The notes under the pieces were generated by a model. That model ran no database searches. It saw nothing but the letters and a program-made list of their open reading frames with translations, and was not told the DNA's origin. 64,000 nt of DNA from assembly GCA_031258545.1 (NCBI GenBank), contig JAIRMU010000019.1:70219-134218 (forward strand). Reading direction: 5' to 3'. Shown here in pieces: positions 60,008-60,259 of this stretch. Position 1 is the first letter of the stretch, and each line of letters opens with the position of its first letter. The DNA is from Puniceicoccales bacterium. Lineage in GTDB: Bacteria; Verrucomicrobiota; Verrucomicrobiia; Opitutales; UBA9783. Position numbers and translations under genes: made by a program.

Positions 60008-60259
60008 ATCGGACTCGAAAGCCAGTTTGGAAATTGAGACTTAAGCCGAGCTGGAGGCTAACCCCCAATCGAACATTGGAGCCGGTGCCAGTCTGGAGAT
60101 CGGAGCTAAGCTTAAGAGCCGATCGAGGATTAAAGCCGATCCAGAGATTGGAACCGGAACAACAGTTGAAGTCCGGTCGGCACCTGGACTCCAGTCAAAG
60201 GTTAAAAACCAGTCGAGGATCCGAGTCAGGTCAGAGATTGGGATGGTTAAAGTCCTTGG
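60008..60259 (+). repeat. Degenerate 18-nt tandem array, ~14 units (consensus about AGYCSRNTCNAGRGWTTRR)
   Basis: Units such as agccgatccagagattgg / agtcaggtcagagattgg / agccggtgccagtctgga / aaaccagtcgaggatccg are in strict 18-nt register. There are 14 GGA triplets between 60001 and 60270. In one frame the array reads as hexapeptide repeats (xxRLxP). Confidence 0.8.

Follow-up and report, generated by a model that had tools for sequence, protein, structure and literature searches.

The stretch of 64,000 nucleotides (nt) analysed here, which will be called the window, belongs to contig JAIRMU010000019.1 of a Puniceicoccales bacterium. Near its 3' end it contains a gene for a predicted exported protein whose 5' part carries two tandem repeats of different kinds: a short run of the octanucleotide AAGACCTC, just downstream of a sigma-70-type promoter, and a degenerate array of 18-nt units located between that run and the hydrophobic signal helix of the protein (Table 1). 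In the 18-nt layout the units read, for example, CGA GGA TTA AAG CCG ATC and CAG AGA TTG GAA CCG GAA, and the last two merge into a conserved GWLKS module. The original prediction for this region called attention to the array and left two readings side by side, an untranslated leader or sponge-like RNA and a translated hexapeptide extension of a membrane-anchored protein. Comparison with related genes, designated below by L-numbers (loci) and P-numbers (database proteins), indicates that the array is probably an in-frame coding minisatellite, and not a regulatory RNA, in a gene that appears to be gated by the AAGACCTC repeat.

Table 1. Features of the locus, in coordinates of the window
Feature	Position	Strand	Evidence
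Sigma-70-type promoter TTGACA, 18-nt spacer, TACAAT	59856..59885	+	11/12 consensus positions; best site in 58600-62300
Putative near-leaderless GTG start, 9 nt after the -10 box	59895..59897	+	Conserved GTGAAGACC at the 5' edge of the repeat
(AAGACCTC)x5 octanucleotide repeat, proposed phase-variation switch	59898..59937	+	Tandem Repeats Finder, 5.2 copies, 100% identity
Stops of both OFF frames, TAA 59946-59948 and TAA 59954-59956	59946..59956	+	Simulated OFF peptides end in ...QSV or ...KRLSA before the stop
Conserved non-repetitive coding segment KRLIANVVPELKESGQRWGLNRT	59947..60015	+	Codon alignment of window, L004, L012 and L020
Array of 14 degenerate 18-nt units, flagged in the original prediction	60016..60267	+	Period; peptide motif [Q/R][R/G]L[K/E][P/S/T]x
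GWLKSLACSGFF..FIRFC module, hydrophobic signal/anchor helix, c-region ending LVA	60238..60339	+	Aligns with short signal peptides of other subfamilies
Mature exported domain, from the AYTPPF motif	60340..61905	+	Family alignment; ~520 residues
3' remnant of another paralog (L020/L152 type), SRIVFMDIKGNHLWIAWMSIDNRTIYHFHINPQDLIDCTV followed by the stop	61957..62079	+	tblastn, 83% identity to the L020 C-terminus

The strict 18-nt periodicity that had been reported is borne out by autocorrelation, by shuffled controls and by a scan of the whole window. For 60008-60259 the autocorrelation was 0.449, 0.412 and 0.424 at lags 18, 36 and 54 and about 0.16-0.31 at the other lags; in 2,000 shuffled sequences the maximum over lags 4-60 averaged 0.325 and was always 0.390 or lower. 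Along the 64 kb the top lag-18 value was found at 60001, and values above 0.38 occurred only in the scan segments from 59951 to 60101; the 18-nt array is unique within the window. Since the peaks fall exactly at 18, 36 and 54, the units are not separated by insertions or deletions. They are highly degenerate, with a mean pairwise identity of ~0.41 and an identity to the consensus of ~0.56, and for this reason Tandem Repeats Finder shows just a 2-copy piece at 60112-60149.

Both open reading frames (ORFs) named in the original prediction are present, one from TTG 60034 to 61905 on the forward strand (623 amino acids) and one at 60041-60262 on the reverse strand (73 amino acids). The latter is treated, as it was before, as a by-product of a period divisible by three; reverse frames carry stops across most related extensions, the exception being one stop-free reverse frame in the short, array-less extensions of L001, L011 and L015. 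The open frame upstream of TTG 60034, the (AAGACCTC)x5 repeat and the promoter, all of which the original prediction overlooked, give the array its context.

Probable coding function of the array and the predicted protein

Hexapeptide arrays were found in five loci, those of the window, L004, L012, L013 and L020. The gene frame contains no stop in 1,073 codons from the nine loci that have an N-terminal extension of any kind, against about 5% stops in the other two forward frames of the same loci (P ~1e-24, the loci not being fully independent). Non-repetitive stretches are part of the count: the insert of 150 codons in L020 and, in L001, L152, L011 and L015, the extension. In L012, L013 and L020 single ORFs of 709, 659 and 825 codons, all reaching the usual stop, span the array, the helix, the AYTPPF motif and the mature domain, and in L012 and L020 also the KRLIA..PEL segment that follows the octamer repeat; the ORFs of these last two begin in the 8-mer repeat at a contig end, and that of L013 begins within the array, likewise at a contig end.

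The substitution pattern among units had been suggested with the original prediction as a means of separating codon-like from structure-preserving change, and the comparison gave a codon-position bias with variable third positions. In 43 units of the five loci, an unbiased set cut by period alone and with no amino-acid filter, the entropies at codon positions 1, 2 and 3 were 1.05, 1.08 and 1.57 (Mann-Whitney p = 0.007), with all six third positions among the most variable; the window array alone gave 1.10, 1.12 and 1.45. In a set of units picked by peptide pattern, the arginine column is filled by AGG, AGA, CGG and CGA and the leucine column by TTG, TTA, CTA, CTG and CTT, that is, by both codon families of each amino acid, and CCG, CCA and CCC are in about equal use in the proline column. 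When the window was aligned with its ortholog L004 at the nucleotide level, mismatches numbered 14 at first, 20 at second and 36 at third codon positions. The arrays of L013 and L020 aligned messily, and their 29, 19 and 35 mismatches are a weaker codon-position signal.

Length comparison between strains had also been proposed as a check, and the orthologs do differ in the distance from the octamer repeat to the AYTPPF motif, which is 393 nt (131 codons) in the window and 294 nt (98 codons) in L004; the gap of 99 nt equals 5.5 units and exactly 33 codons. The array therefore combines what is found in in-frame coding tandem repeats: a unit divisible by three, a frame that is kept, a peptide better conserved than the DNA, and differences in length by whole codons.

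Conservation of the same type extends to the left of the array. In the non-repetitive segment 59947-60015 the four aligned loci differ by synonymous changes (leucine TTA/CTG/CTA, glutamate GAA/GAG, glycine GGG/GGA/GGT, alanine GCC/GCA) and by the conservative replacements L/I, I/V and K/E. The segment, right after the repeat (KRLIANVVPELKESGQ), is upstream of every in-frame ATG, GTG or TTG. Coding-type conservation upstream of all the in-frame start codons means that translation must enter from the repeat. To judge from these comparisons, the array is very probably translated in ON-phase cells, that is, in those whose octamer copy number puts the start codon in frame with the gene.

So read, the array encodes ~13-14 copies of a basic, proline-containing hexapeptide mid-way in a long N-terminal extension. 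In the window the extension places ~120 residues before the hydrophobic helix; it is proline-rich and net basic everywhere, with a charge of +17 in the window and of +4 to +27 in the relatives. The extension is modular. L020 has, at ~190-640, a non-repetitive insert of ~150 codons that is open in the gene frame and holds an internal duplication (KASDCLIITGQAKAPAHGQAAGHPKTSV and KTADYLTKTDRPKSVPGQAAECPRTSV), while L001 and L152 instead duplicate a GCLKIFG..FIRLC module. The module that ends the extension, 60238-60339, aligns with the signal peptides of other subfamilies (MHWIR..., MNAVSYKGL...), and its hydrophobic segment is predicted to be helical, with low confidence, in the AlphaFold model. 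Because AYTPPF sits where the short signal peptides of other subfamilies end, the extension appears to be part of a cleaved pre-sequence, with cleavage presumably after LVA. By the positive-inside rule, with an N-in helix, it would lie on the cytoplasmic side, and it would probably be removed together with the signal peptide. The best guess for the hexapeptide segment is a tolerated, weakly constrained and probably disordered positively charged spacer, or an extended n-region. The translated alternative of the original prediction, a hexapeptide extension before a membrane segment, thus fits the evidence as regards translation and the hydrophobic segment; its start codon, its novelty and its membrane anchoring need correction, the last because the conserved AYTPPF after the segment speaks for a cleaved pre-sequence instead.

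The mature domain matches no Pfam family, and the 623-residue ORF had no match at E <= 0.1; a sequence search of the PDB with the protein gave no match either. The AlphaFold model of the mature domain is beta-rich (predicted template modelling score, pTM, 0.80), and Foldseek returned weak, generic matches, with template modelling (TM) scores of 0.3-0.37, to sialidase and prolyl-oligopeptidase propellers. A beta-propeller-like fold is predicted. The left-handed beta-helix of hexapeptide-repeat proteins (PF00132) was considered for the array and rejected: there is no Pfam match, and the units have a fixed proline and no small residue at i+4. The Hexapep profile reads [LIV]-[GAED]-x-x-[STAV]-x, and a true Hexapep protein at 54476-55183 of the window was detected easily.

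The octanucleotide repeat and the gene family

The frame of the 623-residue ORF stays open upstream of TTG 60034 as far as TGA 59896-59898, which overlaps the GTG at 59895. From the -10 box to the repeat no start-like codon other than this GTG occurs; GTGAAGACC, which contains it, is common to the 5' repeat edge of the window, of L002 and of L153, a locus of a subfamily with a 7-nt repeat, and the -10 box of the window is conserved in the ortholog L002. Reading in the GTG frame of L153 continues across 17 repeat units and enters conserved extension sequence (LRYSKISKGSKPKVVSYG, compare L152). On these grounds we infer that GTG 59895 serves as the start codon. TTG 60034, where the ORF of the original prediction starts, is probably not the real start. 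It was rejected as the main one since codon-like conservation reaches further upstream and since the corresponding position of the ortholog holds no start codon; upstream of it GTG 59895 is the only start-like codon, out of frame in the window copy.

The GTG frame of the window is offset by one and ends at TAA 59946-59948 after 17 codons. Since it is the five copies of the repeat that bring about this early end, the copy present in the window would be phase-OFF, one unit from ON. Simulation of the locus with 1-9 copies bears on this point. A single ORF from the GTG to 61905, of 664, 672 or 680 codons, was obtained with 3, 6 or 9 copies, and with any other number a stop was met within 9 codons past the repeat, at one of the two TAA triplets. 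Hence a tandem repeat whose unit is not divisible by three lies between the putative GTG start and the gene body, and some copy numbers give a continuous ORF and others early termination, as in Opa-type switches. The ortholog L002 has 10-11 partly degenerate AAGACCTC copies and is OFF in the other frame than the window.

The proposed mechanism is the following. The near-consensus promoter would give a transcript beginning 0-3 nt before GTG 59895, and ribosomes would arrive at the exported domain only after reading (AAGACCTC)n, the KRLIANVVPEL segment and the array without a change of frame. Slipped-strand mispairing would add or remove a unit and, because the unit is 8 nt long, shift the frame, with n = 3, 6 and 9 ON and n = 5 OFF; the array, whose 18-nt unit is a multiple of three, could expand or contract without breaking the arrangement. 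On the comparative evidence the octamer repeat is likely to work as a frame switch for translation from GTG 59895, and it may switch within a population. As to a switch of another type, no convincing inverted repeats that would make the promoter invertible were found flanking it.

The homologs of the gene are hypothetical proteins of Puniceicoccales metagenome-assembled genomes (MAGs). An exhaustive profile search found 94 representatives of the family among 1.84 billion proteins, and in contigs sampled at one genome per species each Puniceicoccales MAG had 4-6 paralogs; family members of lower similarity were found in human-gut Verrucomicrobia and Opitutales MAGs. The Puniceicoccales MAGs are probably of termite-gut origin. 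Profile search with the full-length ORFs was saturated by low-complexity words, and among the four matches listed two were new loci, L152 and L153. A protein search with the translated extension alone gave no match, and thus the called proteins of the database do not include the array; P0001, the database copy of the window gene, was called from Met158 (ORF residue 158), with the AYTPPF region omitted. An exact look-up of P0001 gave no second sample of the window locus in which repeat numbers could be compared.

Five subfamilies carry units of 7, 8, 8, 10 and 11 nt directly after the start codon. They are AAGACCTC (8 nt) in the window, L002 (on the same contig as L004), L012 and L020; AAGACCC (7 nt) in L011, L015 and L153; TTCTTCGCCG (10 nt) in L017 and L023; CGGCTCAA (8 nt) in L018 and L019; and TCTTACAAGGG (11 nt) in L003, L005, L009 and L154. 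The paralogs L006, L014 and L022 are free of repeats. In the 10- and 11-mer subfamilies TTGACA-N17-TACAAT/TATAAT is followed after 6-7 nt by ATG and the repeat, and a leaderless mRNA is implied because the ATG sits where transcription should start. Start and repeat are both visible in nine loci, of which four are in frame and so ON (L005, L009, L154 and L018) and five out of frame and so OFF (window, L002, L153, L003 and L023), each of the latter being restored by a change of 1-2 units. The AAGACCTC 8-mer has 5 or 10-11 copies, the 11-mer 1 or 3 and the 10-mer 3 or at least 11, so that between genomes and paralogs copy number varies and ON and OFF alleles both occur, again as in Opa-type genes.

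The short repeats have left their mark on the assemblies, which break at the 5' ends of these genes because of them: in 11 of 28 family loci the contig stops in or close to the 5' repeat of the gene. Such breaks are compatible with switching and are also explained by the presence of the same repeat at several loci. Pure repeat makes up the first ~117-118 nt of the L012, L020 and L017 contigs, a length of k-1 for k119 assemblies; the true tracts must therefore have at least 15 units (8-mer) or at least 12 units (10-mer).

Some further observations concern the repeats elsewhere. In the human-gut MAG MGYG-HGUT-04418 (L018 and L019) a (CGGCTCAA)n repeat lies in the signal-peptide coding region, one paralog having 3 copies in frame and another at least 10 copies, with the repeat at the very end of its contig; an arrangement of the contingency type thus occurs in more than one kind of host. 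In L153 (1-260) GTG and (AAGACCC)x17 are in frame with the extension, after which a one-base difference in a G-run shifts the frame; for this run, CCGGGG where L011 has CCGGG, possible readings are a second slippery site, a mutation and misassembly of a 1.8-kb contig. Three or more tandem copies of AAGACCTC are present in at least 120 unrelated metagenome contigs (L032-L151) from many environments, and among the matches listed for (AAGACCTC)x3 none encodes a family member and no leader is shared. The literature search brought up no account of this family or of phase variation in Verrucomicrobia, an absence of evidence only, as coverage was incomplete.

Several points weigh against a translated array behind a frame switch. 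The two 8-mer loci that show the GTG, window and L002, are both out of frame, and among the loci examined there is no 8-mer ON allele joined to an array. The GTG is 9 nt from the -10 box, and in this lineage initiation at a GUG that is leaderless, or that follows a 3-nt leader, is not an established mechanism. It is uncommon for a signal peptide to be preceded by 120-280 residues, and in other subfamilies a short signal peptide of the ordinary kind ends at the same AYTPPF, so that the extension is dispensable for the fold; TTG 60238 aligns with the start codons of those subfamilies, which makes internal initiation possible. The array-bearing loci are five only, from three or four genomes. As an RNA, the window array folds better than its shuffles, with minimum free energy (MFE) z-scores of -3.26 and -4.1. 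Lastly, the ratios of nonsynonymous to synonymous substitution (dN/dS), 0.19-0.51 for the extension and 0.17-0.19 for the mature domain, come from a protein-guided alignment, which in repeats biases dN downward; being below 1, they suggest that the extension is not entirely free of constraint.

Alternative explanations, recombination and neighbouring genes

The strongest competitor of a translated array places the start at TTG 60238 or ATG 60298, with a short signal peptide, and leaves octamer and array in the 5' untranslated region (UTR) as the decaying remnant of an extension that was once coding, or with a role at the mRNA level only. Other subfamilies do start there (MHWIRLKFF... aligns with LGWLKSLAC..., and MALGAVYLTKPLVAYTPPF of P0012 with MVLIGAVCLTRPLVAYTPPF), the gene callers never took in the extension, and the offset of the GTG in the window and L002 agrees with such a start. 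However, ATG 60298 is ATA in the ortholog L002/L004, and TTG 60238 is not conserved in L012 or L020. Decay would bring stops or frameshifts, none of which occurs in the 1,073 codons of the nine loci; moreover, the dN/dS of the extension is well below 1, and the orthologs differ in length by a multiple of 3 that is not a multiple of 18. We consider this start unlikely.

Far less probable still is the reading as an RNA element, in which a ~350-nt 5' UTR leader or sponge would bind CsrA/RsmA or another RNA-binding protein through the GGA triplets of the array. The number of 14 GGA in 60001-60270 given in the original prediction was confirmed by counting; it is ~3.4 times the window-wide density, by which ~4 are expected, and a strong promoter lies ~120 nt upstream of the array. 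Relative to dinucleotide-preserving shuffles of the region itself (9.3 +/- 2.1, maximum 16) the excess is only ~2.2 standard deviations, and the GGA triplets are distributed over the three codon phases as 5, 4 and 5, arising from glycine GGA codons, from TTG/CTG-GAx junctions (Leu-Glu/Asp) and from TGG-A junctions (Trp-Arg). The hairpin TCG-AGGATC-CGA put forward earlier has a stem of 3 bp, and the placement of GGA in loops was viewed in the MFE fold alone. The fold stability of the window array, mentioned above, is not a constant property of the homologous arrays, whose z-scores were 0.0 in L012, -0.9 in L013 and -2.8 in both L004 and L020; one of three coding controls from the same gene reached -3.3, and the whole 5' region of the window gave -1.87. 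A search of Rfam at a permissive threshold yielded chance-level microRNA and selenocysteine insertion sequence (SECIS) matches only, with E of 2.6-8.3. A tblastn search with the CsrA proteins of E. coli and B. subtilis found no homolog in the 64-kb window, which is weak evidence since it covers the window only. The absence of an Rfam family and of a terminator, a fold stability that is not conserved, variation concentrated at third codon positions and a gene frame open in all nine loci together speak against the untranslated leader or sponge that the original prediction had listed as its first alternative.

A related and slightly weaker possibility is attenuation as in pil1 of Streptococcus gallolyticus, where a GCAGA repeat in the first codons of the transcript belongs to a separate leader peptide followed by an intrinsic terminator (PMC3894217). 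Here the GTG and the 8-mer would form a separate leader peptide whose length governs the melting of RNA structure in the array. The mechanism is demonstrated for pil1, and the window does have a 17-codon GTG ORF with a repeat not divisible by three just upstream of a region of low folding energy. On the other side, no terminator-like site was found on the forward strand in 58600-62300, the ON-frame "leader" would be fused to the whole gene, the array is conserved at the protein level and the structure is not conserved in L012 or L013; little credence can be given to it. Least probable of all is a DNA-level element, either an iteron-like or operator array of protein-binding sites or a neutral minisatellite, for which the regular spacing and the position between promoter and gene body could be cited, since the units are only ~41% identical to each other, what is conserved is codon positions 1 and 2 and not a contiguous motif, a period of 18 bp does not match the helical turn of DNA, paralog arrays keep the peptide motif and not the DNA motif, and pure neutrality would leave the absence of stops unexplained.

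The coding array and its switch are found in a region with traces of recombination. The remnant listed in Table 1 consists of the last 41 codons of an L020-type gene, ~50 nt past the stop of the resident gene, and from 61962 to 63997 the window is colinear with L152 (1782-3817) at 87.6% identity, L152 having a complete L020-type gene in front of folKP. It looks like a gene replacement by recombination at a folKP-adjacent site. The kinship of the parts is mismatched as well: the nearest relative of the mature domain of the window is P0002 (77%), which has an array-less extension of the 7-mer or L152 kind, and the extension of the window resembles that of L012 (54% amino-acid identity) while the mature domains of the two are only 40% identical. 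From this mismatch it follows that 5' modules and gene bodies have been reassorted. A more tentative idea, which we hold to be rather doubtful, is that promoter, GTG, octamer, KRLIA..PEL segment and array form a portable 5' cassette moved by recombination among paralogs and among loci, the array being no passive spacer but either a substrate for homologous exchange or a cytoplasmic module that governs the timing or the route of export. If so, phase variation and antigenic or cassette variation would be combined in a Verrucomicrobial gut symbiont with an injectisome.

Other features were noted in the surroundings. A cluster for an injectisome, that is, non-flagellar type III secretion, occupies 47045-53993 (YscJ/SctJ, SctL, the SctN ATPase with an EscN C-terminal domain, an HpaP/SctP-like protein, SctQ and SctR) and suggests a lifestyle associated with eukaryotic cells; on the L002 contig, FHIPEP and a CesT-type chaperone are within 5 kb of the family member. 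Between a DegT-family aminotransferase gene and the promoter, 58664-59855, ~1.2 kb contain no ORF above 82 amino acids, and there the searches gave no Rfam match, no Pfam match for the 82-residue ORF and no tblastn similarity to the family. Trinucleotide repeats, GGC and GGA in tracts of 10-12 copies, lie at 20915-21025 and probably belong to a glycine-rich coding stretch.

What seemed an exotic RNA element is thus better read as coding sequence, and once it is so read the array is ordinary, in a gene that gene callers cut short. The family appears to be one of contingency genes, for which no description was found, in uncultured Puniceicoccales/Opitutales gut bacteria that include a human-gut MAG. 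Stochastic variation of exported proteins is known mainly from mucosal pathogens; if the switching holds, host-associated Verrucomicrobia with a type III injectisome would vary an exported beta-propeller protein in this way. There is also a practical warning, as such genes break assemblies and look like pseudogenes in MAG annotation.

Comparison with known systems

The kind of array, an in-frame coding tandem repeat, and the kind of switch, an Opa-like contingency repeat, are both already known. The statement in the original prediction that no element of this form had been described was too strong, as in-frame coding repeats in phase-variable surface-protein genes are known. A close likeness is to the opa genes of Neisseria, where the coding repeats are CTCTT pentamers in the leader-peptide region (PMC3960869). 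Both are multigene families of exported or surface proteins, the present one being exported by prediction; in both the 5' coding region has, before or inside the signal sequence, a tandem repeat whose unit is not a multiple of three; the number of copies fixes the frame, ON or OFF, which here is deduced from the sequences; and in both there are signs of recombination between paralogs. The two differ in that the units are of 7, 8, 10 and 11 nt here and of 5 nt in opa, and in that the start codon is here apparently leaderless. In addition, the 8-mer subfamily places 100-280 residues, array and non-repetitive sequence together, between the switch and the signal helix, and the product is a predicted beta-propeller and not an 8-stranded outer-membrane barrel.

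With pil1 the present locus shares a short tandem repeat in the first codons that is proposed to alter the travel of the ribosome. It differs from pil1 in having no terminator and in an ON frame that is continuous with the structural gene. The resemblance to CsrB/RsmZ RNAs is in the high GGA density over ~250 nt; unlike those RNAs, the present sequence reads as coding, lacks conserved hairpins and matches nothing in Rfam.

Size-variable in-frame repeats occur in bacterial surface proteins, for example the Vlp proteins of Mycoplasma and the streptococcal alpha-C-like proteins. The array resembles them in its unit divisible by three, in the length differences between orthologs and in a degeneracy that keeps the peptide motif. 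In those proteins the repeats belong to the mature, exposed chain and produce antigenic size variation, whereas the array described here precedes the signal/anchor helix, is predicted to be cytoplasmic and is probably absent from the mature protein. Autotransporters and two-partner-secretion proteins, too, carry additional N-terminal residues in front of a signal peptide that is otherwise ordinary; this extended signal peptide region (ESPR) has ~25 residues and a conserved non-repetitive motif. Unlike the ESPR, the present extension has 100-280 residues and is repetitive and variable in length. Unusual in the family are the apparently leaderless starts, the five types of repeat unit and the translated spacer of 100-280 residues; unusual, too, is the lineage, uncultured Puniceicoccales with an injectisome cluster.

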